In this document: piece by piece, positions 14,825 through 31,769 of the stretch
Layout: each line of letters starts with the position of its first letter
How positions within the stretch are numbered: position 1 is the first letter of the stretch
From: Thermoplasmatales archaeon
GTDB lineage: Archaea; Thermoplasmatota; JASEFT01; JAUWIS01
Length of the DNA: 36,757 bases
Assembly (NCBI GenBank): GCA_030019485.1
Contig: JASEEW010000001.1
Location: 1 to 36,757 of the forward strand
Direction: 5' to 3'
Program-made: the position numbers and the translations under genes
The notes under the pieces: generated by a model
What the model saw: only the letters and a program-made list of their open reading frames with translations
Database searches by the model: none
Told to the model about the DNA's origin: nothing

Positions 14825-14864
14825 AAAACAAAATCGTTATTTGTGAAGATTAAGGTTTGCATCA

Positions 14865-15020
14865 GCCCTTTCTTTCTCTTTACAAGAGAAAGAAAGCGAC
14901 TGGCGGAAAGAAAGAGAAAACAGCCAACTCTCAGTTGGCTTAGGCGGTTGCTTCGCAACCGCCAATCTCTTCTTTTTTCGCCAGCGTTTTTCTTTTCTCT
15001 AAGAGAGAAAAGAAAAAGGC
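14865..15020. repeat. Composite ~155-bp palindrome containing four perfect stem-loops
   Basis: H1: CTTTCTTTCTCTT-tac-AAGAGAAAGAAAG (14868-14896). H2: AGCCAACT-ctc-AGTTGGCT (14922-14940). H3: GGCGGTTGC-ttc-GCAACCGCC (14943-14963). H4: TTTTTCTTTTCTCT-aag-AGAGAAAAGAAAAA (14987-15017). The outer parts are also mutually complementary (CGACTGGCG 14897-14905 with CGCCAGCG 14979-14986). Confidence 0.75.
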
Positions 15021-15024
15021 TGTG

Positions 15025-15354
15025 TCACATGAACGTCGGCGGACTCCCAACTGTCAGATAAACTGCTTTTTCATCACCAATATTTTTTGCCCCATGAAGA
15101 AGATTAGACTTGTGCCAGAGCGCATCGCCTTCCCCCATGACATAGAAGTTCTCTCCAACCCTGTATTCTATTTTTCCTTTAAGTAAAATGTGTATTTCCT
15201 CCCCCTCGTGTTTGTACAGTTTGGATTCCACGCCTATCCCCATCTCTGATATTACTGCTTCCATTCTTTCTGATTTCATCAGCATTCTAAACAGTTTACC
15301 TGGTTCTCCTGTTTTGTATTTTCCCTCTCCTTTTTTCATAAATATTTCATCCAT
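15025..15354 (-). CDS. Small cupin-domain protein
   Basis: ~109 aa. HEGEEIHILLKGKIEYRVGENFYVMGEGDALWHKSNLLHGAKNIG fits the two-motif cupin pattern. I prefer ATG at 15354, which follows GGGGGTGA. The listed start at 15369 is a GTG. Confidence 0.6.
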   Translation of the reverse strand: MDEIFMKKGEGKYKTGEPGKLFRMLMKSERMEAVISEMGIGVESKLYKHEGEEIHILLKGKIEYRVGENFYVMGEGDALWHKSNLLHGAKNIGDEKAVYLTVGSPPTFM

Positions 15355-15369
15355 TTTTTTCACCCCCAC

Positions 15370-15476
15370 ACTCAGTAGTTAGGGGAGAGCAGTTAGAAGT
15401 TAGGGAACATCTGACTCCTAACTCCTGATCCCTAACTCCTTGCCTTAACCCTTGATCCCTAACTACTCCCATTTTT
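15370..15476 (-). repeat. Intercistronic TTAGGG-unit hairpin element, copy 1 (pycA stop to cupin start)
   Basis: Plus strand: GTAGTTAGGGG..AGTTAGAAGTTAGGGA..TCCTAACTCCTGATCCCTAACTCC..GATCCCTAACTAC. The outer 10-bp arms GTAGTTAGGG/CCCTAACTAC and inner AGTTAGG/CCTAACT arms are complementary. Confidence 0.7.
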
Positions 15477-16922
15477 TCACCCCTGACTTGCAGAAATATA
15501 TGCCTGAACGCCAGCCATAGCAGCTGCTATTTTCGGCGCTGAACTCTGAGCTTTTTGCGCCTTCACATATTCAACAACCTGGTCAAGAATCTTATATTTT
15601 GGTATGAAGCTTGTGTTGTATTCACCTTTTACCCACTGGGAATGATTCATTACAACGGTATGGAATGGTATGTTGTTGCGTACACCCCCAATCTGAAACT
15701 CCCATAATGCCCTTTTTGTCCTTGCTATAGCCCTAGATCTGTCCTCTGCCCAGATAATCAACTTAGCAATCATTGAATCATAGAATGGTGGGATGATGAA
15801 GCCCTGGTAAACACCTGAGTCTATTCTAACACCAGGACCAGATGGCTCTGCATACCTTATGATTTTGCCTGGCGCAGGCATAAAATTGTTTAATGGGTCC
15901 TCAGCATTGATCCTGCATTCTACGGCATGCCCTCTGGGTTTTATGTCCTCTTGCTCATACTCAAGCTCCAGTCCTGATGCAACCCTGAGCTGCTCCCTTG
16001 CCAGGTCAATGCCTGTGATTGCTTCTGTTATAGGATGCTCAACCTGAAGACGCGTGTTCATCTCCAGAAAATAATATTTTCCATCCTTGAACATGAACTC
16101 ACATGTGCCGGCATTGTAATATTTTGCTGTTTTTGCTACCAGAACAGCCTGCTTTCCCATTTCTTCCCTGAGTTCTGGTGTGAGGGCACAGGAGGGTGTT
16201 TCCTCAATCAGTTTCTGATGCCTACGTTGAACACTGCATTCCCTCTCACATACATGAATAAGATGCCCGTGCTTGTCACCTATAACCTGGAACTCTATAT
16301 GACGTGGGTCTTTAATGAATTTCTCTATAAAAACAGCATCATCCCCAAATGAGTTCTTTGCCAGACGTCTTATACTCTCTAAAGTTGTATTCATCTTCTC
16401 ATCAGAGTCAACCATCTGAATACCTATTCCCCCGCCTCCGGCGGAAGCTTTAAGCATGATGGGGTAACCAATCTCATTTGCTATCTCCTTTGCCCTCTCA
16501 TGGTCAGATATAGCCTCTGTCACACCCGGCACGACATGAACGCCTGCTTCTATCATGGATTTTTTTGAGTCAATTTTTGAGCCCATGAGCTCCATTGCCC
16601 CCACAGGAGGACCAATGAATTCTATCCCGTTTTCTTTACACAACTTAGCAAAGTCGGCGTTCTCAGCCATGAAACCATAACCAGGATGTATGCCTTCCGC
16701 ATTGCATTTTAATGCCACGTCTATGATTTTTTCTTTGTTGAGATAACTCTGGGATGCCGGTCCAGGACCTATGTTGTATTTCTCATCAGCATATTTCACA
16801 AACAATGCGTTTTTGTCAGCATCAGAATAAACAGCCACAGTTGCTATACCAAGCTCCTTGCATGCCCTTATTATTCTTACAGCAATTTCTCCCCTGTTTG
16901 CAATTAGCACCTTGTTAAGCAA
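15477..16922 (-). CDS. pycA: Biotin carboxylase subunit (pyruvate carboxylase subunit A type; could equally be a 2-oxoglutarate carboxylase small subunit)
   Basis: 481 aa. KVLIANRGEIAVRIIRA, the ATP-grasp glycine loop KASAGGGGIGIQ, and EMNTRLQVEHPITE. TTG start at 16922 directly abuts the pycB TAG stop, with GGTGAT 6 nt upstream. Confidence 0.85.
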   Translation of the reverse strand: MLNKVLIANRGEIAVRIIRACKELGIATVAVYSDADKNALFVKYADEKYNIGPGPASQSYLNKEKIIDVALKCNAEGIHPGYGFMAENADFAKLCKENGIEFIGPPVGAMELMGSKIDSKKSMIEAGVHVVPGVTEAISDHERAKEIANEIGYPIMLKASAGGGGIGIQMVDSDEKMNTTLESIRRLAKNSFGDDAVFIEKFIKDPRHIEFQVIGDKHGHLIHVCERECSVQRRHQKLIEETPSCALTPELREEMGKQAVLVAKTAKYYNAGTCEFMFKDGKYYFLEMNTRLQVEHPITEAITGIDLAREQLRVASGLELEYEQEDIKPRGHAVECRINAEDPLNNFMPAPGKIIRYAEPSGPGVRIDSGVYQGFIIPPFYDSMIAKLIIWAEDRSRAIARTKRALWEFQIGGVRNNIPFHTVVMNHSQWVKGEYNTSFIPKYKILDQVVEYVKAQKAQSSAPKIAAAMAGVQAYISASQG

Positions 16923-18722
16923 CTACATCACCTGCATAAGCACATCACCTGGCTGGACAGAATCCCCTTCTTTAACAAATATCTCCTTTACTTCACCTTC
17001 CAGATCAGATGTTAACTCCTGCTCCATTTTCATGGCCTCAATAGTCAGGATAACATCCCCTTTCTTGACTTTGTCGCCTTTTTTCACCTTGAGTTTCATT
17101 ATTATTCCCTGCATAGATGATTTAACACCACCTTCAATTTCCTTTGGTTTCACTGCAGGTGCTGCACTGGGAACAGCAAAACCAGTTGGTGTAACCTTGA
17201 CCTCGTACGCCTCACCATCAACCTCGACACTGAATTCTATGGGTATGGATGCAGGCTTCCTTGCCTCAGGAGGCTCAGTTTCAATCCATATCTGTTTATG
17301 CTCAGGGAAGTATTTATTCACCATGGCCCTTGTTAAAGGATGATTGAACGGCAATGGTAATTGCTCAGAGGTAAACTCCGGGTTTGCCTCGCCTTTCAGA
17401 AACTTTAACCCTACCTGGGGGTAAATAGCATAGGTTATAACATCCTCTGGTTTTTTCACCAGTCCCATTTTCTCAAGCTCGTCCTTTCTTTTTTTATACA
17501 TTGGCTCAAGTAAATCAGATGGCCTGCATTCTATTATTTCATCCTTCCATTTTGGTCCTAGTATTGTTTTGTATATTTCCTTTGATATCTCACCAGGTGG
17601 CTTGCCGTACATTCCTTTCACATAGTCCTTTGTTTCCTTTGGGATTTTTTTGTATCTGCCGAAAAGAACATTCATCACTGCCTGAACACCAACAACCTGG
17701 GATGTGGGGGTAACAAGTGGAGGATAACCTAAATCCTTTCTGACCCTTGGCGTCTCTGCAAGAACCTCATTGTATTTATCTGCTGCACCCTGCTGCTCCA
17801 ACTGAAAAACCAGATTTGATAGCATCCCGCCTGGTATTTGATGAACAGTAACAGATGGGTCAACCTTCAACGCCGTTTGCCTGTGCAGATGCCTGTACTT
17901 GTCCCATATCTTCAAAAAATATTCCCTGCATTCCATAAGCAAATTCATGTCATAACTAGTGTCATACTCTGTTCCTTTTAATGCTGCTACAACAGATTCT
18001 GTTGCGGGCTGACCGGTGCCGCCGGAGATGGGTGAGATAGCAGTATCAAGTATGTCAACACCTGCCTCGCATGCCCTCATGTAAGCCATACCTGTCATTC
18101 CTGATGTGCAATGACTGTGTAAATCAATCGGTATTTTTATCCCTGCGTCCTTACATTCCTTTATTATGTCATAAGCCATTTTTGGTGAAATCATCCCTGC
18201 CATATCCTTAATACACAGTGAATCACAGCCCATTTTTTCCAGTTTTCTGAAATCATCAACATATCTTTCAACAGTGTGAACAGGAGAGATGGTGTAGCAC
18301 AATGAGCCCTGGGCATGACCGCCGACCTCTTTAACTGCCTCAATAGGAACCTTCATGTTCCTTAAATCATTCAATGCATCAAAAACCCTGAAATAATCAC
18401 ATCCGTCTTTTTTTGCGTAATAAATAAATTTTTTTACTATATCATCAGGGAAATTCCAGTATGCAACAATGTTCATTGCGCGCTCAAGCATCTGCAGAGG
18501 CGTGTTTGGAAGGGCAGATTTCATTTTTTTCAATCTTTCCCAGGGGTCCTCATTCAGGTATCTTATTGGAACATCAAATGTTGCACCACCCCAAACCTCA
18601 AAAGAAAAAAAACCTATTTTGTCTATGACAGGGCATATTGGAAGCATGTCCTCTGTCCTCATCCGCGTTGCAAGTATTGACTGATGCGCATCCCTAAATA
18701 TCTGCTCATGTAGTTGTACCAT
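16923..18722 (-). CDS. pycB: Carboxyltransferase + biotin-carrier subunit (pyruvate carboxylase subunit B / oxaloacetate decarboxylase alpha family)
   Basis: 599 aa. FRDAHQSILATRMRT (TIM-barrel carboxyltransferase), HCTSGM, and a C-terminal biotinyl domain with the IEAMKME biotinylation motif. Confidence 0.85.
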   Translation of the reverse strand: MVQLHEQIFRDAHQSILATRMRTEDMLPICPVIDKIGFFSFEVWGGATFDVPIRYLNEDPWERLKKMKSALPNTPLQMLERAMNIVAYWNFPDDIVKKFIYYAKKDGCDYFRVFDALNDLRNMKVPIEAVKEVGGHAQGSLCYTISPVHTVERYVDDFRKLEKMGCDSLCIKDMAGMISPKMAYDIIKECKDAGIKIPIDLHSHCTSGMTGMAYMRACEAGVDILDTAISPISGGTGQPATESVVAALKGTEYDTSYDMNLLMECREYFLKIWDKYRHLHRQTALKVDPSVTVHQIPGGMLSNLVFQLEQQGAADKYNEVLAETPRVRKDLGYPPLVTPTSQVVGVQAVMNVLFGRYKKIPKETKDYVKGMYGKPPGEISKEIYKTILGPKWKDEIIECRPSDLLEPMYKKRKDELEKMGLVKKPEDVITYAIYPQVGLKFLKGEANPEFTSEQLPLPFNHPLTRAMVNKYFPEHKQIWIETEPPEARKPASIPIEFSVEVDGEAYEVKVTPTGFAVPSAAPAVKPKEIEGGVKSSMQGIIMKLKVKKGDKVKKGDVILTIEAMKMEQELTSDLEGEVKEIFVKEGDSVQPGDVLMQVM

Positions 18723-18771
18723 TTTTTTTCACCTTTAAGGATGGGTATTACGTTGGATGTTTAAAAATGTT

Positions 18772-19257
18772 TCATTCTTTCTTTTTTAGTTTTAATCTTG
18801 TATATGGAAGCAGACCGCCTGCATCCCTGATAGCAAGAACTTCTTTTGGAAGTGCTGGAAAAGAAAAATTTTGTTCTCCGACCATGATACTTCCTTTTTC
18901 AATGTTTAGTTGAACTTCATCACCTTCTGAATAAGTTTTCACTGCCTCCGGGCATTCTATAAGAACAAGACCCTGATTAATTGCGGCTCTGTAAAATATC
19001 CGCGCAAAACTTTCAGCTACTATCGCTTGAACACCAACGGATTTAAAACCCAGAACTGGCTGCTCTCGCGAGCTGCCGCATCCAAAATTTTTCCCAGCAA
19101 AAATAACATCACCAGTTTTTACATTATCCGCAAATGATGGATCCAAATCCTCAAGGAGATGTGGTTTAATTTCCTCAGGCGTGGCGCATGTATATGTGTA
19201 TTTTCCTGGGAAAAGCTGGTCAGTGTTTATGTTGTCGCCATACTTCCATATTCTCAT
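18772..19257 (-). CDS. Aconitase-superfamily dehydratase small subunit (LeuD/HacB-like swivel domain)
   Basis: 161 aa. WKYGDNINTDQLFPGKY and GKNFGCGSSREQ. The ATGA overlap with the large subunit stop suggests translational coupling. Confidence 0.85.
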   Translation of the reverse strand: MRIWKYGDNINTDQLFPGKYTYTCATPEEIKPHLLEDLDPSFADNVKTGDVIFAGKNFGCGSSREQPVLGFKSVGVQAIVAESFARIFYRAAINQGLVLIECPEAVKTYSEGDEVQLNIEKGSIMVGEQNFSFPALPKEVLAIRDAGGLLPYTRLKLKKKE

Positions 19258-20513
19258 TTTCTCACCGTCCTTGGGTCAGTAATTTCACCATGAATGGCTG
19301 ATGCTGCAACAGTTGCGGGTGATGCAAGATAGATTTCTGCTTCTTTGCATCCCATTCTCCCCTTAAAATTTCTGTTTGCTGTGCTGAGGCATCTTTCCCC
19401 TGGTGCTAATACCCCTTGATGCGCACCCAAACATGGCCCGCAACCAGAGGGGAGTATTATTGCTCCGGCATTGCTCAAAATCTCAATATTCCCATTTCTC
19501 AAACAGTTTTCAAAAACGGTTTTTGATGCAGGAAGTATGAGCAGTCTAACATGGGGTGAAACTTTTTTTCCCTTTAAAATCCCAGCCGCAATTTCAAGGT
19601 CTTTTTCTCTTCCATTTGTGCAGGTTCCAATGAGACATTGGTTTATTTCAATCCCAGCAACTTCGGAGACAGATTTTACATTGTCCACATTGTGCGGGCA
19701 GGCAATCACTGGTTGAATTTTTGAAACATCGTATGTGAGTTCACTATGATACACAGCATCAGGGTCAGCCCATACAGGCTCATAATCCTTTACACCTGTT
19801 TTTTTCAGGTACTCAACAGTTATATCATCAACCGGGAAAACAGCGTTTTTTGCACCTGCTTCCACGCCCATGTTGGCAATGGTGAACCTGTCGCCAACAG
19901 AAAACTGTTCCATGTCGCCATGGAATTCAACAGAGCAGTAGTTCGCGCCTGAAGAACCAATATCACCTATAATATGAAGTATAACGTCTTTTGCTGAAAC
20001 CCGGTTGTTTAGTTTTCCTTTCAAATTTATCTTGATGCTTAAAGGCACCTTGAGCCATGTCTCACCTGTTAGCAGAAGGGAAGCAGCCTCAGTCCTGTCT
20101 ATCCCTGTTGAAAAAGAGTTAACAGCGCCATATGAGCAGGTGTGCGAATCACTCCCAAGTATTAAACTTCCAGGAACAGCGAAACCTTTTTCCAGAACAA
20201 TCTGATGACATACGCCTGTGCCTGCATCAAAAAAATTTTTGAGTTTGTGTTTTTTCACGAACTCCCTGATTTTTTTATGGTTAGATGCTGTTTTCTCGTC
20301 TGCCGCAGGTATTACATGGTCCAACACGATAACAGGTAGATTTTTGTCAACAATTCCATATTTTTCTATTTCATCTGAGATTTTTCCTATAATGGCTGCT
20401 GCATTATCATGCATTAAAAGATGCTCTGGTTTAACAGTGACAATCTGCCCTGGGACAGCATCCTTCAAGCCTGCCTTTTTAGCAAGAATTTTTTCAGCAA
20501 ACGTTTTCCCCAT
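19254..20513 (-). CDS. Aconitase-superfamily dehydratase large subunit (LeuC/HacA-like), canonical active site
   Basis: MHDNAA, VLDHVIPA, GVCHQIVLE, GSDSHT, ANMGVEAGA, GTCTNGR, GCGPCLG, NRNFKGRMG. I prefer the start at ATG 20513 (MGKTFAEKIL), which follows AGGTGA. The listed start at 20588 overlaps the upstream gene. Confidence 0.85.
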   Translation of the reverse strand: MGKTFAEKILAKKAGLKDAVPGQIVTVKPEHLLMHDNAAAIIGKISDEIEKYGIVDKNLPVIVLDHVIPAADEKTASNHKKIREFVKKHKLKNFFDAGTGVCHQIVLEKGFAVPGSLILGSDSHTCSYGAVNSFSTGIDRTEAASLLLTGETWLKVPLSIKINLKGKLNNRVSAKDVILHIIGDIGSSGANYCSVEFHGDMEQFSVGDRFTIANMGVEAGAKNAVFPVDDITVEYLKKTGVKDYEPVWADPDAVYHSELTYDVSKIQPVIACPHNVDNVKSVSEVAGIEINQCLIGTCTNGREKDLEIAAGILKGKKVSPHVRLLILPASKTVFENCLRNGNIEILSNAGAIILPSGCGPCLGAHQGVLAPGERCLSTANRNFKGRMGCKEAEIYLASPATVAASAIHGEITDPRTVRK

Positions 20514-20518
20514 AATAC

Positions 20519-22267
20519 TCACCTTTTTAGAAGACCCCCTCTTTGATAAATTTTCATCTGAATCTCTGAAAAAGGACTGCCTTTGCATCTTTCATTTTTT
20601 GAGCAGTTTTCCACATTTCCTGTGGAGAAATCCACTTTGACCTCATCCCCATTTTTTATAAGAGACACTGCATTATCCAGTGTTATTATTGGCATGCCAG
20701 AGTTGATGGCATTTCTTTCATAGATTGAGCCGAATGATTCAGCAATTATAACAGAAACACCAAGGCTTTTGAAGCAGTCCACTGCCTGCTGCCTGGAGCT
20801 GCCGCATCCAAAGTTTTTTCCAGCAACAACAATGTCGCCTTTTTTCACTTTTTCTGCAAACATCTCCCACCCCTCTAGGTTCTCAAATGCATGCTTCCCC
20901 ATCTGCTCTATATCAGTTATTGAAAGGTATTTGTTATGGAATATCATGTCTGTATCAATGTTGTCCTTCTTGATTACCCACGCCCTTCCTTGAGCAGCAG
21001 TTGGTTTTTTCTGTATTTCTTTCTCTTTCTGGATAGATAGAGTCTCTGGTAAAACGGTTTTAAAAAGAACAGGCGTTGATGGAATATCATCCCTGGTTGT
21101 GATAACACCTGCAACAGCTGACGATGCTACTGTCTCAGGTGAAGCAAGATACATGCTGCCTTTACCCTGCTTCCCAGCAAAATTTCTGTTCCCGGTACTC
21201 ACTGTGATTTCACCTGGACCGTTTTGTCCAATCTGCCCTGCGGCGCATCCTGCACATCCCGGGTTGCCAATCAGCGCCCCTGCCTTTGTGAATATATCAA
21301 TGATTCCTTCATCAAGGCATTTTTTCCATACATCATGGGTGGATGGAACAATTTTCAGCACAACACCAGGAGCAACCTTTTTATTTTTCAGAATTTTTGC
21401 TGCAGCAGCCATATCCTCAAATCTACCGTTTGTGCAGCTGCCTATAAAGCAGGAGTCAATCTTTGTTCCTTTTACCTCTGATACAGGGACAACATCCTCA
21501 GGATGACCGGGGCGTGATATCATAGGCTCAAGTTCATTTATGTCAATTTTCACAATTTTTTTGTATTCTGCATCAGGGTCAGCAAGGACAGGTTCGGTTG
21601 GGAAAAAAATTATAATTGCTCCCATTTCTGTTGCCATGGAAGAAATCGTTATCCTGCCTGAAAGCCCCAAACTGTCTAAACCATAAATTTCTGCTGCGCA
21701 TCCTAAAAGACCGCTTGCGCCAAACTCTTTGAGGATTGCAAGGACGAGGTCTTTGGGTGTTGCGTTTTTACCAGGTAATCCTTTTAAAACTATTTTAACC
21801 GTGGGTGGAACCTTAAACCAGATTTTTCCAAATGCAAACGCGTGCGCAACATCAACATCACCCATCCCCTGACCAAAAGCCCCTATTGCTCCGACTATGT
21901 TTGCGTGCGAGTCCGTGGAGATTAGTGTTCCCCCAGGAGATATTAGTCCTTTGTCTATGGATAGGTGTGTGCCAATGCCTTGAGTGATATCATACACCAT
22001 GATACCATTCTCTCTTGCAAACATTCGGCATAACTGTTGGTTTGCAGCATACTTCTGATCAGAGCCTGTTGGATTGCAGTCAAAAGTAAAAAAAGTCTTA
22101 CCTGGGTCATCAATGCCAAGAGCGTTTTCCCTGAGGTTTTTCACAACATTTGCTCCTCCGAAATCCCTAGCAAGGCGCGCATCAATACCCAAATCAACAA
22201 TATCCCCTAGGCTTACTGGGTGTCCGCAGTGCTTCTCAATAATTTTTTCAATAATTGTTTTTCCCAT
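20519..22267 (-). CDS. Fused large+small-subunit aconitase-superfamily protein with non-canonical active-site residues; substrate unknown
   Basis: 582 aa. The N-terminal ~400 aa is LeuC-like (STDSHAN, GSCTNGR, GCAGCAAG, NRNFAGKQG). A ~30-aa linker follows. The C-terminal ~150 aa is LeuD-like (DNIDTDMIFHNKY, GKNFGCGSSRQQ). GGAGGAG lies before the ATG. Confidence 0.75.
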   Translation of the reverse strand: MGKTIIEKIIEKHCGHPVSLGDIVDLGIDARLARDFGGANVVKNLRENALGIDDPGKTFFTFDCNPTGSDQKYAANQQLCRMFARENGIMVYDITQGIGTHLSIDKGLISPGGTLISTDSHANIVGAIGAFGQGMGDVDVAHAFAFGKIWFKVPPTVKIVLKGLPGKNATPKDLVLAILKEFGASGLLGCAAEIYGLDSLGLSGRITISSMATEMGAIIIFFPTEPVLADPDAEYKKIVKIDINELEPMISRPGHPEDVVPVSEVKGTKIDSCFIGSCTNGRFEDMAAAAKILKNKKVAPGVVLKIVPSTHDVWKKCLDEGIIDIFTKAGALIGNPGCAGCAAGQIGQNGPGEITVSTGNRNFAGKQGKGSMYLASPETVASSAVAGVITTRDDIPSTPVLFKTVLPETLSIQKEKEIQKKPTAAQGRAWVIKKDNIDTDMIFHNKYLSITDIEQMGKHAFENLEGWEMFAEKVKKGDIVVAGKNFGCGSSRQQAVDCFKSLGVSVIIAESFGSIYERNAINSGMPIITLDNAVSLIKNGDEVKVDFSTGNVENCSKNERCKGSPFSEIQMKIYQRGGLLKR

Positions 22268-22357
22268 TTACTCCTCCACCCTAGTAGCTAGGGGTTAGGG
22301 GGATTGTTTTCCTTTTTTCCCCTAATCCCTAATCCCTGATCCCTAACTACTTTCATC
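22268..22357 (-). repeat. Intercistronic TTAGGG-unit hairpin element, copy 2 (HD-gene stop to fused-dehydratase start)
   Basis: GTAGCTAGGGGTTAGGGGG (22284-22302) faces CCCCTAATCCCTAATCCCTGATCCCTAACTAC (22319-22350). The arms GTAGCTAGGG/CCCTAACTAC pair 9 of 10. Confidence 0.7.
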
Positions 22358-22948
22358 CTACTCCTCCAGAATTAGTTCTCCTTTCTGAAGCATTACAAGT
22401 GGGTTAAATGTGCTGAAATCAGCCTGGTGTATGAGTACGGTTTCTACAGTTTGGGGTCTGCCTTCACCTTCCTTGGCATGGCATGCAACAATATTCACAA
22501 TCTCATCTGGAAGACCAGACTCTGCTACCAGGATTGCGCCTGAGATAGGATGGCGCGCGCACCTCCCGCTCCTGCTTTTCCTGTACCCTCCTTTATTATC
22601 AGGCGTTATCTCAAGGAGTTTGCCGACATCATGAAGGAGACCGCCAGCAATCAGTCTGTCAAAATTTATTTTATACGGCGGTTCAGCGTAGTTTTTCGTT
22701 TGGGCTTTGCCTAGACCAAGCGCACCCTCGGTAACCGCGATGGTATGCTCTATGAGGTTGATGTCTCTGGAATCTGTGAGGAGTGTAAAAGGAATATTTT
22801 TTAGCTCCTCCACTGTTTTCCATCCTCCGCGTTCGCATGCCTTAACCCATACATTCACAACCTTTTTTCTTAGTTCGCTATCTGAAATCTTGGAAAGCAA
22901 TTCTTCAAACAGTTCTTCAATATCCTTTTCCTTTATCATATTCACCAC
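22358..22948 (-). CDS. HD-domain metal-dependent phosphohydrolase family protein
   Basis: 196 aa. IEHTIAV (His) and GGLLHDVGK (HD motif), with later HAKEG and HQAD. The GTG start at 22948 is 1 nt after the upstream stop. An alternative ATG lies at 22939. Confidence 0.75.
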   Translation of the reverse strand: MVNMIKEKDIEELFEELLSKISDSELRKKVVNVWVKACERGGWKTVEELKNIPFTLLTDSRDINLIEHTIAVTEGALGLGKAQTKNYAEPPYKINFDRLIAGGLLHDVGKLLEITPDNKGGYRKSRSGRCARHPISGAILVAESGLPDEIVNIVACHAKEGEGRPQTVETVLIHQADFSTFNPLVMLQKGELILEE

Positions 22949-22949
22949 T

Positions 22950-24143
22950 TCATTCCATTTTTGAGATTACCGCATCTGTCATTTCCTTAGTGCTTGCTGC
23001 ACCCTGGTCAAAAACCTTTTCACTTCCAGGGAGCCTCAGCATATCATATGTCCTAACTTTCCCTTCCTCTATAACATCTGCAACTGCTTTTTTTATCCTC
23101 TCTGCTTTTTCTATCTCCCCAAGATGCTCAAGCATCATACAGGCAGATAAAATCATGGCCATTGGGTTAACAATTGATGGTTTTAAATTCGCATATTTTG
23201 GTGCTGAGCCATGTGTTGGCTCAAAGATTGCACAATCTTTTCCAATATTGGCGCTACAAGCAAAGCCGAGACCTCCAACAAGACCTGCGAAACCATCAGA
23301 GACAATATCACCAAACATGTTTCCTGCGACAATAACGCCGTAGTCCTCAGGGTTCTTTGTAAGCCACATCATCTGCGCATCTATGTTTGTGAACCAGAGT
23401 TTAATATCAGGAAAATCAGTGGATATTTTTTTTGCTTCCTCCATCATCATGCCTGAGGTTTCCCTTATCACATTTGGCTTCTCACATATTGTCACGCTTT
23501 TGTATTTGAATTTTTTTGCATAGAGAAACGCCTCCCTGATTATTCTACTGCATGCAGGTCTTGTGAAGATTCTTGTAGAAATCGCCAAGTCCTTTCCAGG
23601 CACATCTTTGAATTTTTTCATTTTTGGATGCGTTTCCAAAGCTGAACGCACATTTTCAGGAGGGTTCGTCCACTCAACACCAGAGTAAAGTCCTTCAGTG
23701 TTCTGCCTGAACACAACAACATCAACAGATGGTTCTTCAAAACTGTTTCCTTTTCTTCTGATAAAGTTCAAAGGGTTTCCTTTGAATGACCTGCATGGTC
23801 TGATGCATATATCAAGGTCAAAATGCTGCCTGAGACCAACTATTGGACTGTAATACACATAACCTTTTCCCTGAAGACCCGGCGATAACTCCTTGGCAGC
23901 CTGGTCCTTTGGCTTTGATGTAATTGCACCAAAAAGACCAATTCTGTGCTTTTCAAGAAGCTCAATTGTGCGCTGGGGTAACGCATTCCCTTCTTTAACC
24001 CAGCATCCCCATCCAATATCTGCGTTTATGTAATTTGCCTCAAAACCAGCAGCATCAAGAACCCTGAGTGCTTCTGAAAAAACGATTTTTCCAATCCCGT
24101 CACCAGGCATGGTTACAATGTTTTTTTTTCCCATGTTAATCAT
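22950..24143 (-). CDS. Isocitrate/isopropylmalate dehydrogenase-family beta-decarboxylating dehydrogenase, non-ICDH-like substrate loop
   Basis: 397 aa. TMPGDGIGK, LFGAITSKP, YSPIVGLRQHFDLDICIRPCR, FRQNTEGLY, GDIVSD. The position matching E. coli ICDH Asn115 is Ile. Confidence 0.8.
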   Translation of the reverse strand: MINMGKKNIVTMPGDGIGKIVFSEALRVLDAAGFEANYINADIGWGCWVKEGNALPQRTIELLEKHRIGLFGAITSKPKDQAAKELSPGLQGKGYVYYSPIVGLRQHFDLDICIRPCRSFKGNPLNFIRRKGNSFEEPSVDVVVFRQNTEGLYSGVEWTNPPENVRSALETHPKMKKFKDVPGKDLAISTRIFTRPACSRIIREAFLYAKKFKYKSVTICEKPNVIRETSGMMMEEAKKISTDFPDIKLWFTNIDAQMMWLTKNPEDYGVIVAGNMFGDIVSDGFAGLVGGLGFACSANIGKDCAIFEPTHGSAPKYANLKPSIVNPMAMILSACMMLEHLGEIEKAERIKKAVADVIEEGKVRTYDMLRLPGSEKVFDQGAASTKEMTDAVISKME

Positions 24144-24147
24144 TCTT

Positions 24148-25341
24148 TCATTTTTTGTAACTTGACCATTTTTCTTCCAGCTTTGGGTCCTTTAGTGTCT
24201 CAATTATGTATTTCGCCATCTCAGCCCCTGTGGCACCGTCTGCCCTGCCTGTGCAGCCTATTTTTTTCTCATATACTGTGCATATATCAAGCGCCTTTCC
24301 CAGTTTTTCTGCTTTCTCAGTAAACCCTATGTGTTTGAGTAACATAACTGTTGCTCTTATAACACTTGATGGGTCTGCATACTGTGCTCTTCCTTCCTGA
24401 ACCATTCTTGGCGCAGTACCATGGATTGCCTCAAACATAGCATATCTTTTGCCAATGTTAGCACTTCCAGCAGTACCTACACCACCCTGAAACTCTGCAG
24501 CTTCATCTGTGATTATATCCCCATAAAGGTTTGGGAGAACAACCACCTTGAATTCAGTTCTTCTTTTAGGATCAACAAGTTTTGCTGCCATTATATCAAT
24601 AAACCAGTCATCCCATTTTACGTTTGGATAATTTTTTGCTATTCTTCCAGCTGTGGATAAAAACTTTCCATCTGTGGTTTTCACAACATTAGCCTTTGTA
24701 ACAACTGTGACCCTGTTAATGCTGTTTTTACTGGCGTAATCAAATGCAAGCCTGATAATTCTTTCTGAGCCCTGAGTCGTTATGGATTTAAAATCAATTG
24801 CGAGATCATCAGTAACATTTATACCATGCTTACCAAGTATGTATTCCCCCTCTGTGTTTTCCCTGAAAAACACCCAGTCTATGCCTTCTTCCGGTACCCT
24901 GACAGGTCTGACATTTGCGAAAAGGTCAAGATCCCTCCTCATGGCAACATTTGCGCTTTCAATATTGGGCCAGGGGTCACCTTTTTTAGGTGTTGTGCAG
25001 GGACCTTTGAGCAGCACATGACATTTTTTTATTTCTTCCAATACATCATCAGGTATTGCCTTCATAACCTTTACCCTGTTCTCAATTGTAAGACCCTCAA
25101 TGGTTTTAAACCTGACCCTGCCCTTCCTGGCTTCTTCCTCCAGTAGATACTCAAGGATTTTCTGCGCCTCCTTAGTAATGTAGGGACCTATGCCGTCACC
25201 GCCAACTATGCCTATAACAATGGGTTTAAGTGTTTTGTAATCAACCCATTCCTCAGCCTTTTTCATTTTTTCTACTCTTTCTAATTCCCTTTTAACTATC
25301 CTGCCAAAATGCTCCTTTGCTTTTTCTACTGCCTCGTTCAT
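24148..25341 (-). CDS. icd: Isocitrate dehydrogenase-like (prokaryotic homodimeric type)
   Basis: ~397 aa. GGDGIGPYI, LLKGPCTTP, ESANVAMRRDLDLFANVRPVR (S-x-N as in E. coli S113/N115), FRENTEGEY, LYGDIITDEAA. I prefer ATG 25341, which follows GGGGTGA. The listed start at 25350 is a GTG. Confidence 0.8.
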   Translation of the reverse strand: MNEAVEKAKEHFGRIVKRELERVEKMKKAEEWVDYKTLKPIVIGIVGGDGIGPYITKEAQKILEYLLEEEARKGRVRFKTIEGLTIENRVKVMKAIPDDVLEEIKKCHVLLKGPCTTPKKGDPWPNIESANVAMRRDLDLFANVRPVRVPEEGIDWVFFRENTEGEYILGKHGINVTDDLAIDFKSITTQGSERIIRLAFDYASKNSINRVTVVTKANVVKTTDGKFLSTAGRIAKNYPNVKWDDWFIDIMAAKLVDPKRRTEFKVVVLPNLYGDIITDEAAEFQGGVGTAGSANIGKRYAMFEAIHGTAPRMVQEGRAQYADPSSVIRATVMLLKHIGFTEKAEKLGKALDICTVYEKKIGCTGRADGATGAEMAKYIIETLKDPKLEEKWSSYKK

Positions 25342-25350
25342 ATTCTTCAC

Positions 25351-25442
25351 CCCACACTTAGAAGTTAGCAGTTAGAAGTTAGAAGTTAGAATTCAGGGAA
25401 CTCTGACCCCTAACCCCATGACCCCTAACTCCTGATCCCTAA
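25351..25442 (-). repeat. Intercistronic TTAGGG-unit hairpin element, copy 3 (aclA stop to icd start)
   Basis: The plus-strand left arm holds tandem AGTTAGAA/AGTTAGCA units (25362-25390). The right arm is CCCCTAACCCCATGACCCCTAACTCCTGATCCCTAACTAC. The last CTA is the aclA stop codon. Confidence 0.7.
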
Positions 25443-27287
25443 CTACTGACTACTCGTTAAGTAGCATATGTCATCCCATGGGTGCCTGTAAAGCCCCTGT
25501 TTCAACCTCTTTTGGTCAAGATAATGACCCATGAGTCCAATGCTTCTGCCTAAGACAAACAACCCATTAAGCGCACCCATTGAAACATACTCGTCAGCCT
25601 CCTCCCTTGTGAATTTTCCACAGCTCCTGAGAAGGTCCACAAAACAGATGCCTATGCAGCCATCCACATTCAGAATGAGATTGTTTTTCTTCTTTGTTGT
25701 GAGCTTTTCAACCTCAAGCGCATAGTCCAGCAGAGGTGTTGCCTTGAAATGCTTTTTAACATAATCCTTTATTAAGGTCACCCTCATATCAGGGTTCTGC
25801 ACGCTCTTCACCCTGTGACCTATCCCCTGGATGTTCACACCTTTTTTCTTTTGCTCATCCACAAACTGTGAGGGTGTAAGCCCTCTGTCGTATGCTGAGG
25901 AGAACATCTGAGCTGCCCCATCTATTGCCCCCCCGAACCTTGGTCCAATGGTAAGAAGCCCTGAGACAAGTGAGGATATTAAATCCTTTCCTGCCCTTGC
26001 TGCAACAATGGTGTTATGCGCACCTGATACTGCCGGGCCATGATCAGCTGTGATCTGCAAAACCATTTCAATAAATTTGTGACCATAATCTGGGAGCTGG
26101 CGTTTGAACCAGAGCTGAGATATCACACCACCAGTACCTATATTCCTTTTGAACACATCGGTAATAGAGATGTCGCCGTAATGCAACTCTTCTCCTCTAT
26201 CATCTGAGATTGTGGAAATAAAATTTGTTGGTTTTCTAATCATTCCCATCTTCACTGCCCAAGCGTAATCCATGGGCATCCCTGGTTTTTCAGGCTCTGT
26301 TTTCTCTTTAATAACCCCTTTCTTTACAAGAGCATTATAGGTTTCATTGATTTTTTTATCAAACTCATCAAAAGAGTCTGGTACTATAGCACCTGCTTCT
26401 TTCAATGCCTTATTCTTTGCATCTGCTGTCTCAAGCTCCCCTCCTGCAAGAGCGCCTGCGTGCCCGAACTGAACCTCTGATTTGAACATCTTCGCACATG
26501 TACCTATGCACCAGGCAACCACTGGTTTTTTGATTTTACCACTTTTTATAGCTTCAACAACCTGGTATTCATCTATTCCACCAACCTCACCCAGCAGGAC
26601 AATCATCTTGATTTCAGGGTTTGCCTCATATCTTAGTATATGGTCAATGAATACAGAACCAGGGTATCTGTCACCACCAATTGCAATGCCTTCATAAACA
26701 CCGTCTGTGTTCCTAGCAATGATGTTGTTAAGCTCGTTTGACATGCCGCCTGATTTTGACACGTATGCCACACTGCCGGGTCTGTGCAGTTTGGATTCCA
26801 TGATGTTATCTATCATCCCTCCTGTGTTACCGATTTTGAATGCGCCTGCCTTTAAACCACCAACAGTAGCAGGTCCTATAATCGTTTTTTTTCTTTTTTT
26901 CGCTTCAGCAATAATCTCCTTTGTTCTCCTTTCAGGGATTCCTTCAGCAATGACTGCTACTGTTTTTATGGAATCATAACCCAGTGCCTCCATTGTAGTT
27001 GGGTAGGCTGACCTGAAGGATGCAAAATTAACAACCACATCTGCTTCAGGATGTTTTTTCACTGCATCCTTCAATTCTTTATAAACAGGTACCAGTATTT
27101 CCTTACCGCCGAAAAAGGCTTTATGAAACCCGTCCCTGCCGGAAGGATTAATTATTGCTGCAACAGAAGGTATTTTCCTTCCGCAGACATAATCAAAGTC
27201 AAGCATTCTCTGAACCGCATTCGCCTGCATGCCGTACACGAATGACTGGGTATCAACATCAAACAGGTCATACCATTTTTTTGCCAT
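25443..27287 (-). CDS. aclA: ATP-citrate lyase alpha subunit (CoA-ligase alpha-like domain + citrate-synthase-like lyase domain)
   Basis: 614 aa. [71 protein letters not shown], the phospho-His loop VQFGHAGA, and the C-terminal GIGHRVKS citrate-synthase fold. Confidence 0.92.
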
Positions 27288-27288
27288 C

Positions 27289-28563
27289 TTACTTCCCTCC
27301 TTTTAGGCCCATGGAGGCAATCCTTGTCATATGCGTCTCAGGACCGTAAACCTCAATTGGAACGCCCAGGGTATTCCCTAAGTCCTTCATCATTTTTAAC
27401 CCTGCCTGATAATTTGGTCCTCCCCTTCTGACATATATCTTCACCTTGTTTTCCTGAAGTTTTTCCTTGCTCTCCCTTAAAGCCCTTACTATGCCTTTGA
27501 ATGTATTCGCAACATCAGTGAAGTTTGCTATTCCACCACCAATAAGAAGTATTTTTCCTTTCGGGTTCTTTTCCCTTGTCATCAAATCAAGAACTGTTTT
27601 CGCATACTGATATGTGAACTCCTCACTTGGGTCGCCTGAGTACTCCCCATAGTTGGCAAGCTCTTTGCCAAGCCCTAAATCCGAGATTGTGTCAGCATAT
27701 ATCACAGATGCCCCCCCTCCTGCAACAAGCGTCCACACCCTTCCTTTCGGGTTAAGTACTGTGAGCTTCAGGGATGCCCCTGTTTTAGAATCCAGCTCCT
27801 TGATGTATTCCTCCTCCCTGCTGAAAGTTCTGCCAAACGGCGCAGGGAATTCTATTTCACCCCATTTGCTGCTGCTTTCGAACTCACCTGTGTCATCAAG
27901 TTTCGCAGCCAAATCCAAAGGCACAACCCTGTTTTTTACAACAACAAAAGGGTTTACTTCGAGATACGCGTAGTTCAAATCAGAATAAAAATTGAAAAGC
28001 GCATGAATGAACCCTGCAATTAATTCTTTTCTTTCATCTGGAACATTTCTCAAGATTTTCTTAATCTCTTCCTGGTTTGTTTTTGAGCCCACAGGAACAA
28101 GAAGTTTTTCTGATTTTGTGTCAACATCCCCAACACCCATGCCGCCGTGATGGTAGAAAAGTATTTCGTCCCCATCCCTCAACGACCTTATGCAGGCATA
28201 GTATTCATCCTCTTCTTTATGTGGTATGAACGGCTCAATGATGAAATGCGTCAGCCTGCCAGTAGTATTCTGGACTGTGAGCTCCTTGTTCATTCTTTCT
28301 TTAACCCATTTTTCAGCATCACTGAAAGACGCATTTAAAAGAAGGAGTTTGCTTTTACCCCTTCTTTTAATGAGCTGATCCGGTTTAACCACCAGCTTTT
28401 CTTTTAGAAGCCAGGGGTGTGCCTCACCCAGTTTCTTAAAATCTGTTCCCGGTGTCACCTGAGCAAAACTGTTTTCAATCACATATTTCCCATTAGAATA
28501 CTCTTTTAACAGTCGTGCCATCATCTGCTTTCCATCATACTCCCTAATTGCTCTCTGCGCCAT
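27289..28563 (-). CDS. aclB: ATP-citrate lyase beta subunit (ATP-grasp, SucC-like)
   Basis: 424 aa. [63 protein letters not shown] closely parallels the N-terminus of eukaryotic ACLY as I recall it. GGAGGAG lies before the ATG. The gap to aclA is 1 bp. Confidence 0.92.
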
Positions 28564-28582
28564 ACCTATCTCCTCCCTATTA

Positions 28583-30487
28583 TTAATTCTGATGCGTTTT
28601 TGTAAATGATAGTAATCCCCCCTCCTTTAGAATGTCTATATCCCTTGGTGTTAACGGATGCGTCGCAGGGACATCAATTTTTTTTGTCAAACTTTTCAAA
28701 GCTATATCCTTCTTGCCGAGGTCTGAAACATCCAGCTCTAAACTGTCCCCGGGATCTATTTTATCATAATCATCCGGGTTTTTCAGCTCCAGCGGCAGAA
28801 TCCCGAAATTAATCAGGTTGGCAAGATGGATTCTGGCAAATGATTTAGCTATCACTGCCTTCACACCGAGATACATTGGGCAAAGCGCTGCATGCTCCCT
28901 TGATGAGCCCTGACCATAGTTGCTTCCGCCGAGAATGAAGCCGCCTTTTTTCTCAAGAGCCCTTGCTGCAAAATTAGGGTCTATGGGCTCAAAAACATGC
29001 TTTGCATACTCAGGAACGTTTGACCTTAGGGGCAGAAGTTTGCCTGCAGGCATGATATGGTCTGTGGTTATGTCATCCCCCACCTTAATGAGCACCTCGC
29101 CTGCGAGTCTGCCAGGCAGTTTTTCCTTCTTTGGCAGAGGCGCTATGTTTGGACCCCTGATAATTTTCACATTCTCAGGTGTTTTTGAAGGATAAATAAT
29201 AAGGGTGTCATCAGGATGGAACACTGTGGGTATTGAGAATTCTGGCGGGGCATGTTTTCTTGGGTCTGTCAGTTTTCCTTCTATTGCGGTTACGGTAGCG
29301 GTTTCCACACTTGTTAAATATACCTGAGCAGATTTTGTTCCTGACCTGCCTTCAAAATTCCTGTTAAATGTTCTGATTGAAACGCCGTTTGTTGGTGGTG
29401 CCTGCCCCTGCCCTATGCAAGGACCGCATGTGCATTCAAGTATCCTGGCACCTGAGGCAATCAGATCTGCCAAAGCACCATTTTTTGCAATCTCATTAAA
29501 CACTGTCCTGGAGCCTGGTGAAATCACAAGTGAAACATTGGGATGCACCTTTTTACCTTTCAAAATCCTGGCTGCAGTCATTAAATCCTTGTAGGATGAG
29601 TTTGTGCAGGAGCCGATAGCAACCTGCTGAATCCCCATGCCTTCCAGTTCTTTTACTGTTACAACATTTCCTGGGCTATGAGGTTTTGCAATCAGCGGCT
29701 CCAACTTTGACAAATCTATTTCTATGGACTCATCATATTCAGCATCAGAATCAGGGACTAGTTCTATCCATTGGGCCTCCCTTCCCTGGGATTTTAAGAA
29801 TGCCTTTGTAATCTTGTCCGAGGGAAATACTGAGCTTGTCGCACCTGTTTCCGCGCCCATGTTTGTAATCGTTGCTCTTTCAGGCACGGAAAGGCTTTTT
29901 ACACCCTCACCACAGTATTCCAGAACCTTGTTCACACCTCCTTTCACCCCTATTCTCCTTAAAACCTCAAGAATCACATCCTTTGCCGCAACCATCTGGG
30001 GAAGTTTTCCTGTTAGCTTCACACCCACAACCTTTGGTTTTTTAAGATAAAATGCTCCTCCTGCCATTGCAATAGCAACATCAAGACCGCCTGCTCCAAT
30101 CGCGAGCGAGCCTGCACCGCCTGCTGTTGATGTATGACTGTCAGAGCCGAGTAACGTTTTACCAGGTCTTGCAAATCTTTCCAGATGAACCTGATGGCAG
30201 ATGCCGTTGCCTGCTTTGGACAATATTATCCCATATTTTGAGGCAACGCTCTGCAGATATAGGTGGTCATCAGGGTTTTTAAAATCTGTTTGAAGGGTGT
30301 TGTGGTCAACATAAGACACTGAAAGTTCTGTTTTCACCTTTGGGATGTCCAGCGCTTCAAACTGTAGATATGCCATTGTGCCTGTTGCATCCTGCGTGAG
30401 TGTTTGATCAATCTTTATGCCAATCTCGTTTTCCCTCCTCTCAACAACATGCTTCTCAAGTATTTTCTCAGCAACATTTTTTCCCAT
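28583..30487 (-). CDS. acn: Aconitate hydratase, ~630-aa single-chain (Aquifex/mitochondrial-like) type
   Basis: All canonical motifs are present: DQTLTQDATG, YVDHNTL, GICHQVHLE, GSDSHT, TNMGAETGA, GSCTNSS, CGPCIGQG, NRNFEGRSG, GQGSSREHAA. Confidence 0.9.
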   Translation of the reverse strand: MGKNVAEKILEKHVVERRENEIGIKIDQTLTQDATGTMAYLQFEALDIPKVKTELSVSYVDHNTLQTDFKNPDDHLYLQSVASKYGIILSKAGNGICHQVHLERFARPGKTLLGSDSHTSTAGGAGSLAIGAGGLDVAIAMAGGAFYLKKPKVVGVKLTGKLPQMVAAKDVILEVLRRIGVKGGVNKVLEYCGEGVKSLSVPERATITNMGAETGATSSVFPSDKITKAFLKSQGREAQWIELVPDSDAEYDESIEIDLSKLEPLIAKPHSPGNVVTVKELEGMGIQQVAIGSCTNSSYKDLMTAARILKGKKVHPNVSLVISPGSRTVFNEIAKNGALADLIASGARILECTCGPCIGQGQAPPTNGVSIRTFNRNFEGRSGTKSAQVYLTSVETATVTAIEGKLTDPRKHAPPEFSIPTVFHPDDTLIIYPSKTPENVKIIRGPNIAPLPKKEKLPGRLAGEVLIKVGDDITTDHIMPAGKLLPLRSNVPEYAKHVFEPIDPNFAARALEKKGGFILGGSNYGQGSSREHAALCPMYLGVKAVIAKSFARIHLANLINFGILPLELKNPDDYDKIDPGDSLELDVSDLGKKDIALKSLTKKIDVPATHPLTPRDIDILKEGGLLSFTKTHQN

Positions 30488-30506
30488 AAAACAGAATTAA
30501 ATTCAG

Positions 30507-31687: not shown

Positions 31688-31769
31688 TAGAATATCAAAA
31701 AATAAGAGTGGTTGAGAAAGCACTTGGATGTACGCCTCAGATAACATATATGCAGCTGGAAATATATAT

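Follow-up and report, generated by a model that had tools for sequence, protein, structure and literature searches.

Three spacers in a 36,757-nt stretch of DNA from a Thermoplasmatales archaeon (contig JASEEW010000001.1; the whole stretch is hereafter called the window) hold related G-rich hairpins, all within a citrate-lyase / tricarboxylic acid (TCA)-type operon whose every gene, from 15025 to 30487, is carried by the minus strand in one array. Copy 1 stands between the genes for biotin carboxylase (BC) and a cupin, copy 2 between those for an HD-domain protein and an aconitase-family protein, and copy 3 between aclA and icd. The locus raises the question of how such palindromes came to lie between these genes: as RNA structures kept for a function, as microsatellites grown in place, or as insertions. 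We propose, with moderate confidence, that the three spacers are copies of a non-coding palindromic insertion element of ~70-100 nt, probably mobile and MITE-like (MITE, a miniature transposable element with inverted repeats). This explanation, mentioned as an alternative in a preliminary description of the sequence, is supported by empty sites in relatives, target duplications, conserved termini and dispersal to unrelated loci.

Three hairpin spacers and their empty sites in relatives

The exact 14-mer GTAGTTAGGGATCA, read on the sense strand, occurs once in each spacer (15453-15466, 22337-22350 and 25433-25446). Allowing up to two mismatches gave six matches against 0.18 expected, a number reached in 0 of 100 shuffles, and eight of the nine AGTTAGG sites of the window fall within the three spacers. 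The 14-mer starts 10 nt past the TGA of the BC gene in copy 1 and 7 nt past the TAG of the HD gene in copy 2, and in copy 3 it overlaps the aclA TAG (25443-25445), which falls in the second unit of that copy. In each spacer, G-rich units are followed by complementary (C/T)CCTAACT units, and the Shine-Dalgarno (SD) motif of the next gene closes the spacer. The preliminary description had claimed a set of related spacers, a motif close to or overlapping the upstream stop, and AGTTAGG units followed by their complements up to the next ribosome-binding motif, and all of this was confirmed. Its spacer lengths of about 90-107 nt were corrected to 122, 90, and 101 nt, because the cistrons behind copies 1 and 3 likely start at the ATGs at 15354 and 25341, respectively, and not at upstream GTGs; the likely start behind copy 2 is the ATG at 22267, and all three starts have an SD motif. 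The string AGTGTGGGG(G)TGAA, reported as common to copies 1 and 3, is present in both as sequence and corresponds to the SD region of the downstream genes.

The description of the units was also refined. They are 7-nt and 14-nt tandem repeats in all three spacers (Tandem Repeats Finder, TRF), combined with inverted termini. In phase, the 5′ arms read GTAGTTA GGGATCA GGGATTA ..., built from the heptamers GGGATCA, GGGATTA, and GGAGTTA, and the 3′ arms are C/T-rich complements. Copies 1 and 2 have AGTAGTTAGGG at the 5′ end and its inverted complement, CCCTA(A/G)CTACT, at the 3′ end. The termini of the family, AGTAGYTAGGG...CCCTARCTACT, occur in copies 1 and 2 and most of the related copies; copy 3 is without the 3′ terminus. 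The element cores are 59-109 nt long and have no coding capacity of their own. Each spacer was predicted to fold as one long, imperfect hairpin (-25 to -40 kcal/mol; -37 to -40 kcal/mol for copy 1), with modest folding z-scores of -0.5 to -2.5 against shuffles on the sense strand. A 13-kb Logan contig (run SRR23186780) matches the window at 99.96% identity without gaps, and the spacers are therefore not assembly artefacts of one data set.

To compare these junctions, we used contigs of relatives encoding the closest homologues of the Icd and BC proteins, retrieved by protein search. Relatives with 87-94% protein identity carry the same operon, with a hairpin element at none of the three junctions. 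In contigs at 93-94% identity (L089-L098 and L103-L106), the gene order is the same from aconitase through the biotin ligase and BioY genes, and the HD/aconitase, BC/cupin, and aclA/icd junctions measure 0 nt, an overlap of 4 nt (L103), and 35 nt, respectively, compared with 90, 122, and 101 nt in the window. More distant relatives are likewise short, with 0-1 nt at HD/aconitase in L100 and L101 and 5-6 nt at BC/cupin in L107 and L108. Copy 1 is accordingly missing in L103, L107, and L108, and copy 2 in L089/L103, L100, and L101, all with 0-1 nt between the HD and aconitase genes. The alignments show clean insertions of ~90 and ~107 nt. Because several distinct lineages have short junctions and only the window lineage has long ones, insertion is the parsimonious reading. 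The elements are thus not conserved in relatives, in which two of the junctions are 0-6 nt wide or overlapping and the third holds a plain array.

Mapping of the flanks onto the empty sites revealed target duplications (Table 1). At copy 1, the empty site in relatives reads CAGGGGTGAGAAAAAATGGATGAAATA and contains the target stretch once, and 17 nt of it (GGGGTGA..AAAATGG) stand on both flanks of the element. At copy 2, 15 nt of the empty site (TGGAGGAGTA..ATG) are duplicated. Both duplicated stretches comprise the SD motif together with the upstream gene's stop and the downstream gene's start. The right-hand flanks are target sequence and not cargo of the element, because each resembles its own empty site and not the other right-hand copy. 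Two further insertions were found in ribosomal-protein operons of the closely related metagenome contig L063. The element between rpL18 and rpS5, compared with empty sites in L127-L129 (2-nt spacer), is flanked by an exact duplication of GGAGGCA with imperfect similarity beyond it. The element between rpS17 and rpL14, compared with the empty site of L132 (1-nt spacer, a single GGAGGATAATATG), is flanked by AGGTGATAAAATG to its left and GGGCGATAACATG to its right. Measured against the empty sites, copy 1 has a duplication of 17 nt, copy 2 one of 15 nt, the S17/L14 element one of 13 nt, and the L18/S5 element one of at least 7 nt; copy 3 has none.

Dispersed copies and the open reading frame

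A metagenome scan with the 21-mer AGTTAGGGATCAGGRRTTAGG returned 43 contigs. The low-GC contigs among them (36-40% G+C) have a hairpin architecture like that of the window, and the high-GC bacterial contigs have plain tandem arrays. The tetranucleotide composition of the low-GC contigs correlates with that of the window at 0.87-0.94, compared with 0.88 for the window's own parts and at most 0.75 for unrelated loci, and their L18 is 90% identical to that of the Thermoplasmatales-labelled metagenome-assembled genome (MAG) having the 92% BC homologue. In further scans, a second L063 copy came to light, as did one upstream of rpL3 in the sister lineage, which brings the family to at least 12 distinct copies on contigs whose tetranucleotide signature matches. 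The order of the outer units (AGTAGTT, AGGGATC, AGG(G/A)(A/G)TT) and both termini are identical at unrelated loci, and the 3′ terminus CTA(A/G)CTACT recurs in related copies though it lay outside the search pattern. In 626 kb of citrate-lyase loci from 44 other genomes, zero family copies were found. The 21-mer also occurs in long plain tandem arrays in unrelated bacterial contigs of 42-59% G+C (L055, L078, L050, L064, L070, and L079); these contigs carry inverted pairs of it without AGTAG termini as well, and both shared descent and convergence fit.

Family members were observed at co-directional gene junctions, in a divergent spacer upstream of a TATA-like box (B046), beside tRNA-Gly and tRNA-Thr genes, and within one tRNA-like gene. 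The last member (L085 10060-10116) splits the T-arm of the gene (GGGAGTTCAAAT|GTAGTAGTT...), which is intact as GGGAGTTCAAATCTCCCCCTCGGCG in the relative L132 (~17190-17215); the L085 contig ends at this insertion, so that one side of the element is seen. The same tRNA-like gene has a long hairpin-filled insert, for which ARAGORN gave no call. A minimal form, GAGTAGTTAGGGAATACTAC, lies at a gene end in L074 (8723-8742) with its first TAG as the stop, and could be a seed or a remnant of the element.

The copies at tight junctions have an open frame in common. Copy 1, counted from GTAG, is 93 nt or 31 codons long; in this copy, B063, B063b, and B088, the length is divisible by three and the frame GTA-GTT is without a stop, the other frames and orientations having 1-6 stops each. 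In the six tabulated copies that lie elsewhere than at tight junctions, no frame is free of stops. The frame is thus open in 4/5 versus 0/6 copies (exact test, p about 0.015). In copies 1, 2, B063b, and B088, an ATG stands exactly two codons ahead of G(T/G)A-GTT; this ATG is the relic start of the left duplicate, the duplication at B088 being deduced from flanking repeats alone. The short open reading frame (ORF) that begins there ends at the next start in three copies, with a TGA that overlaps the start region of the cupin gene in copy 1 (ATGGATGA) and with an ATGA overlap in B063b and B088; in copy 2 it ends 20 nt before the next start. In L063, the L18 ORF (6632-7237) reads through the element to the right-hand TAA copy and encodes 201 amino acids, compared with 166 in the closest homologues. 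The inserted element adds 35 residues (tail ...EVVRDQGLGIREKKEKTTLATNSLPPTTKQKEA), and the long form is represented by a cluster of 18 member sequences.

For archaeal gene pairs, termination-reinitiation coupling is reported to depend on overlaps or very short distances (PMC10666635). Because of this need, insertions would survive at coupled junctions when a bridging ORF restores the delivery of ribosomes. The relic left SD and ATG would open a short ORF that reads into the one stop-free frame of the element (GTA GTT AGG GAT...), and, since the lengths at tight junctions are divisible by three and this frame is open, the short ORF or the extended L18 would carry ribosomes to the next start. 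The predicted 41-codon ORF of copy 1, the translation of which we infer from its sequence, ends on the real start, so that ribosomes may be carried across the hairpin and coupling probably be kept. We consider this bridging mechanism tentative and less certain than the insertion of the elements. For annotation, such spacers hold relic starts and short ORFs, and ORF callers stretch neighbouring genes into them.

The following course of events is suggested by these comparisons. Within a single lineage of uncultured archaea, related to Thermoplasmatales-labelled MAGs, the element would recently have spread and entered operon junctions that were formerly 0-6 nt wide or overlapping. Its integration, through mobilisation in trans by a putative integrase that we infer, would duplicate ~13-17 bp of the target, and at junctions the insertions to survive would be those with SD, stop, and start all inside the duplicated stretch. 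The upstream gene would then keep its own stop and the downstream gene would gain a fresh SD and start beyond the element; the operon would still work because an insertion on the ribosome-binding site duplicates that site.

Copy 3 appears to have a different history. At the aclA-icd1 site, relatives have only a plain G-rich array of 28-35 nt, AGTAGCT AGTAGCT AGGGGAT AGGGGTT AGGGAAG GTGA, which merges into the native SD region. This region, TAGGGAAGGTGA, is part of the solo array and is also found in a relative with a different upstream gene. Copy 3 of the window has its left part in common with the array and additionally has a ~69-nt loop and C/T-rich arm. Its 3′ half and SD region are closest to copy 1 (83% over 40 nt; family D11), and empty sites 1 and 3 have GGTGA.AAAAATGGATGA in common. 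Copy-1 sequence may have recombined onto a resident G-rich array with a near-identical SD-start sequence, although this origin is speculative. In the proposed scheme, copy 3 would be an untranslated hairpin.

Several observations weigh against an insertion element. Copy 3 is without a target duplication and an intact 3′ terminus. Elsewhere the duplications range in length from 7 exact nucleotides to 17 nt; they are not perfect, and 1-8 filler nucleotides stand between them and the termini. Between copies, the 3′ arms diverge strongly and the arms vary in length by whole heptamers, which is what slippage in place would produce. Because most members were found with a 5′-arm probe, the conservation of the 5′ arm is partly ascertainment. 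The 21-mer itself forms plain tandem arrays in unrelated high-GC bacterial contigs, and the open-frame statistic is based on 11 tabulated copies. No autonomous partner or integrase was found, and the ends of the only insertion sequence (IS) of the window (31769-33123) are unrelated to those of the elements. This IS encodes an ISC1217/DDE_5-like DDE transposase (31886-32941) and has 19-nt inverted repeats, TACTGAACTTTTGCGTTTT, different from the hairpin family; it was ruled out as the parent element on account of these terminal repeats. Two scans of viral contigs for the termini and a 16-mer gave matches only to unrelated coding or other sequences.

Table 1. Positions of the three copies, their target duplications, and the associated short ORFs in the window
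Feature	Position	Strand	Sequence or content
Copy 1 (E1) core	15374..15467	-	94 nt, AGTAGTTAGGG...CCCTAACTACT; G-rich 7/14-nt units, loop, C/T-rich complements
E1 left target copy	15469..15483	-	GGGGTGAAAAAATGG; original SD, BC stop TGA 15477-15479, relic ATG 15470-15472
E1 right target copy	15351..15367	-	GGGGGTGAAAAAAATGG; working SD, cupin start ATG 15352-15354
Putative bridging short ORF of copy 1	15347..15472	-	41 codons and stop, from relic ATG through the whole element
Copy 2 (E2) core	22283..22351	-	69 nt: AGTAGTTAGGGATCAGGGATTAGGGATTAGGGG, A-rich loop, CCCCCTAACCCCTAGCTACT
E2 left target copy	22354..22368	-	TGGAGGAGTAGGATG; SD, HD stop TAG 22358-22360, relic ATG 22354-22356
E2 right target copy	22265..22278	-	TGGAGGAGTAAATG; working SD, start ATG 22265-22267 of the 582-aa aconitase-family gene
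Short ORF of copy 2	22288..22356	-	MKVVRDQGLGIRGKKENNPPNP; from relic ATG to TAG in the 3′ arm
Copy 3 (E3)	25356..25454	-	AGTAGTC AGTAGTT AGGGATC AGGAGTT AGGGGTC..., loop, (TTCTAAC)n

Alternative explanations and described systems

One alternative is growth in place, in which a G-rich heptamer microsatellite would have expanded by replication slippage and a fold-back template switch would then have produced the inverted copy, with no mobile element involved. The strict 7/14-nt periodicity of the arms and their variable unit numbers fit this process, as does the solo array of relatives at aclA-icd1, part of which is the native SD region, and heptamer simple sequence repeats with convergent inverted pairs are known in bacteria (PMC4692102). 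However, none of the four empty sites (those of copy 1, copy 2, and the two ribosomal-protein elements) has a seed array, and slippage does not duplicate flanking unique sequence. Growth in place is also at odds with the same outer-unit order and termini at unrelated loci, and the two arms of an element are not copies of each other. We regard it as improbable.

The preliminary description had favoured RNA structures resembling repetitive extragenic palindromic (REP) sequences. In this alternative, hairpins would be selected in cis to protect upstream mRNA segments from 3′-5′ decay, mark processing sites, or tune how the next cistron is translated. The elements are indeed transcribed within a co-directional operon, directly after stops, and have the predicted folds given above. 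The arm bearing GGGATCAGG is promoter-proximal on the coding strand in 8/8 co-directional contexts, orientation being scored by this arm since any G/C palindrome reads its G-rich arm first on both strands; this bias may reflect only that this orientation offers the stop-free frame. The stem of copy 3 has seven G-U pairs that work on the sense strand only. However, 10 copies together have 22 G-U pairs on the sense and 25 on the antisense strand, and only 6/10 are more stably folded on the sense strand. The elements are missing from the same junctions in every relative examined, and members also lie upstream of the TATA-like box in the divergent spacer, by tRNA genes, and in one tRNA-like gene. 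Attenuation or termination was likewise not borne out: the three spacers have no hairpin-plus-U-tract site on the sense strand and no T-run in the sense sequence. Rfam gave no match at the gathering score and none in the spacers even at E<=10. As for the suggested sequestering of the SD, the minimum-energy fold leaves it unpaired in copies 1 and 2, and in copy 3 places it in a few weak outer pairs. Conserved RNA structures that stabilise, process, attenuate, or tune are therefore unsupported by the relatives, G-U counts, folding energies, terminator scan, and Rfam search, and we judge selection for such a function unlikely. A REP-like effect of the elements on mRNA is possible but unsupported; an effect of the hairpins on mRNA stability would possibly be a by-product and not the reason for their presence.

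Very unlikely is a G-quadruplex (G4) switch, with the G-rich arm adopting a G4 in RNA or non-template DNA that would compete with the hairpin and so regulate transcription or translation. Four G3+ tracts separated by short loops are present in copies 2, 3, and B063, and related bacterial heptamers form G4 in vitro with a preference for four units (PMC4692102), but four close G tracts occur in only 3/10 folded copies (three tracts in copy 1), the complementary arm is only 10-30 nt away, and ViennaRNA with G4 energies still predicts the hairpin for every copy.

The insertion-element reading was compared with described systems. The closest is that of the GGGNATC-type heptamers reported by Rehm et al. 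in 2015 from Xanthomonas and Nostoc, which lie between co-directional ORFs and have no known function (PMC4692102). Their G-run is on the coding strand when up to 50 bp from the stop, which it overlaps in some cases, and on the non-coding strand when directly ahead of the next start; each Xanthomonas genome has 70-75 convergent inverted pairs that are potential stem-loops, with lengths varying between relatives (PMC4692102). No link to mobile elements was reported, 83% of the repeats were common to two species, and a report of tandem heptanucleotides in the cyanobacterium Calothrix was cited (PMC4692102). G-rich heptamer repeats have been observed in prokaryotes for many years. The elements of the window have in common with these repeats the tandem 7-nt units with GGG, the intergenic position mostly between co-directional ORFs, the coding-strand G-run up to 50 bp from the stop and in some cases overlapping it, the non-coding-strand G-run ahead of the next start, the convergent inverted pairs, and the length variation between relatives. 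They differ in the unit (GGGATYA/GGAGTTA here, GGGAATC or GGGGAYT there), the archaeal host, the fixed inverted termini AGTAGYTAGGG, and the 13-17 nt duplications at verified empty sites. The elements thus appear to be an archaeal relative of those inverted repeats.

Like MITEs, the elements are small and non-coding, have terminal inverted repeats and target-site duplications, and form dispersed hairpin copies co-transcribed with their neighbours. Unlike MITEs, they have long (13-17 bp) and variable duplications, arms consisting of heptamer arrays of varying number, and insertions exactly on SD-stop-start junctions. Of the features of a MITE, small size without coding capacity, shared terminal inverted repeats, and target duplications at empty sites were found, whereas no parent element is known.

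REP sequences, bacterial interspersed mosaic elements (BIMEs), and REP doublets forming hairpins (REPINs) are extragenic palindromes, often between co-directional genes, that have GTAG at the 5′ end and can stabilise upstream mRNA. The present elements are likewise extragenic palindromes between co-directional genes with a 5′ GTAG, but an arm consists of G-rich or C-rich units on one strand only and is not itself a short palindrome, and the 13-17 nt duplications contrast with the chemistry of the REP-associated tyrosine transposases (RAYTs) of IS200/IS605 type, which is not known to make any. Neither the palindromic unit nor insertion without target duplication, both typical of REP/REPIN, was thus found here. 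REP-like palindromes of archaea have been surveyed (PMC12306157). As for translation, the C-terminal extension of L18 in L063 is an in-frame read-through of a palindromic repeat. Rickettsia palindromic elements can likewise be read through in frame and become part of a protein. Their sequences and hosts are unrelated to those described here, and the translated cases here are at gene junctions and not inside domains.

The length of the duplications can be compared with those made by casposases. Aciduliprofundum belongs to the Thermoplasmata-related archaea. Its Cas1-solo casposase produces a duplication of 15 +/- 2 bp and integrates mini-elements bearing only the terminal repeats (PMC5137440). 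The duplications of 17, 15, and 13 nt found here agree with this length, but another may be only 7 bp, being exact for 7 nt only. The likeness is a lead only, because neither a cas1 gene nor a casposon nor a terminal repeat that matches was observed. The intergenic TAACTGA heptamer repeats of Beggiatoaceae and cyanobacteria form arrays near start codons, including those in ribosomal-protein operons, with a patchy distribution (PMC4679880). Heptamer arrays close to starts, ribosomal-protein operons, and patchy phylogenetic distribution are features common to both; however, the TAACTGA repeats are direct, have a non-G-rich unit, and include only one reported inverted case (PMC4679880). Literature searches found no described MITE in Thermoplasmata and, among the top results, no paper joining the terms casposon and MITE; a full-text search for the unit sequences gave noise only.

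Genomic setting and meaning of the elements

The array comprises, in order, genes for aconitase, ATP-citrate lyase beta and alpha, two members of the isocitrate/isopropylmalate dehydrogenase family, an HD-domain protein, three aconitase-family proteins, a carboxyltransferase-biotin carrier protein, BC, and a cupin. Its G+C content is 41-46%, compared with 32-38% in the flanks. The operon (15001-30500) is 6-10 percentage points above its flanks in G+C, yet the tetranucleotide signatures correlate at 0.88. The closest named relatives are uncultured archaea, including a MAG labelled Methanobacteriota archaeon CSMAG_2300 (AclA 87-90% identical) and a MAG labelled Thermoplasmatales archaeon, GCA_022013975.1 (BC 92% identical). 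An origin in a giant sulfur bacterium or a cyanobacterium, to which the heptamer repeats had pointed, was rejected because the closest loci are archaeal. The HD-domain gene and the fused 582-aa aconitase-family gene (20519-22948) are missing in the CSMAG_2300 relative (L042) and present in all closer relatives, and operon content therefore varies within the clade.

Other repeats were also observed in and around the operon. A second dispersed hairpin, CAGCCTTTTTCTTTTCTCT-CTT-AGAGAAAAGAAAAA, lies in the window (14982-15024), L107 (2617-2655), and L132 (17056-17092). It stands directly 3′ of the cupin stop in the window and one relative and within the intron-like insert of a tRNA-like gene in another, and its T-rich 5′ arm could be a candidate archaeal terminator of the operon. 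The spacer between the cupin and biotin ligase genes (14825-15024) consists of 200 nt of stacked small hairpins, including GGCGGTTGC-GAA-GCAACCGCC (14943-14963) and AGCCAACT-GAG-AGTTGGCT (14922-14940); it measures 3 nt in the 93%-identity relative L103 and 230 nt in L107. Repeated in the lineage's intergenic spacers is also a third family of small hairpins, GGAATTGC-N4-6-GCAATTCC (L059 ~1380-1400, L042 ~757-775, L107 2661-2685, and L085 9848-9868), with one copy nested within the heptamer element B059. In the window, a 69-nt tandem repeat of 2.3-2.6 copies (33217-33398) overlaps a 122-aa plus-strand ORF (33229-33597), and 15/30-nt tandem repeats (34700-34793) lie within a 932-aa PKD/Ig-domain gene.

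Taken as insertions, the hairpins are more interesting as genome dynamics than as regulation. On this reading they would form a new archaeal family of miniature palindromic insertion elements, built from heptamers, which duplicate ribosome-binding sites. Four independent events offer a comparison of filled with empty sites, and in these the inverted-pair form behaves as an insertion element with long target duplications. The comparison indicates how a palindrome of ~100 nt may be tolerable between translationally coupled genes: the duplication would rebuild the signals and the open frame would carry ribosomes. It is conceivable, though unlikely, that these are operon-compatible mobile elements, in which case an integrase measuring off ~15 bp, which could be a Cas1 of the casposase kind, would have ribosome-binding sites as its targets and duplicate SD, stop, and start, a stop-free frame would keep coupling, and the G-rich heptamer inverted repeats of bacteria (Xanthomonas and cyanobacteria) would be the same mobile DNA and not microsatellites.

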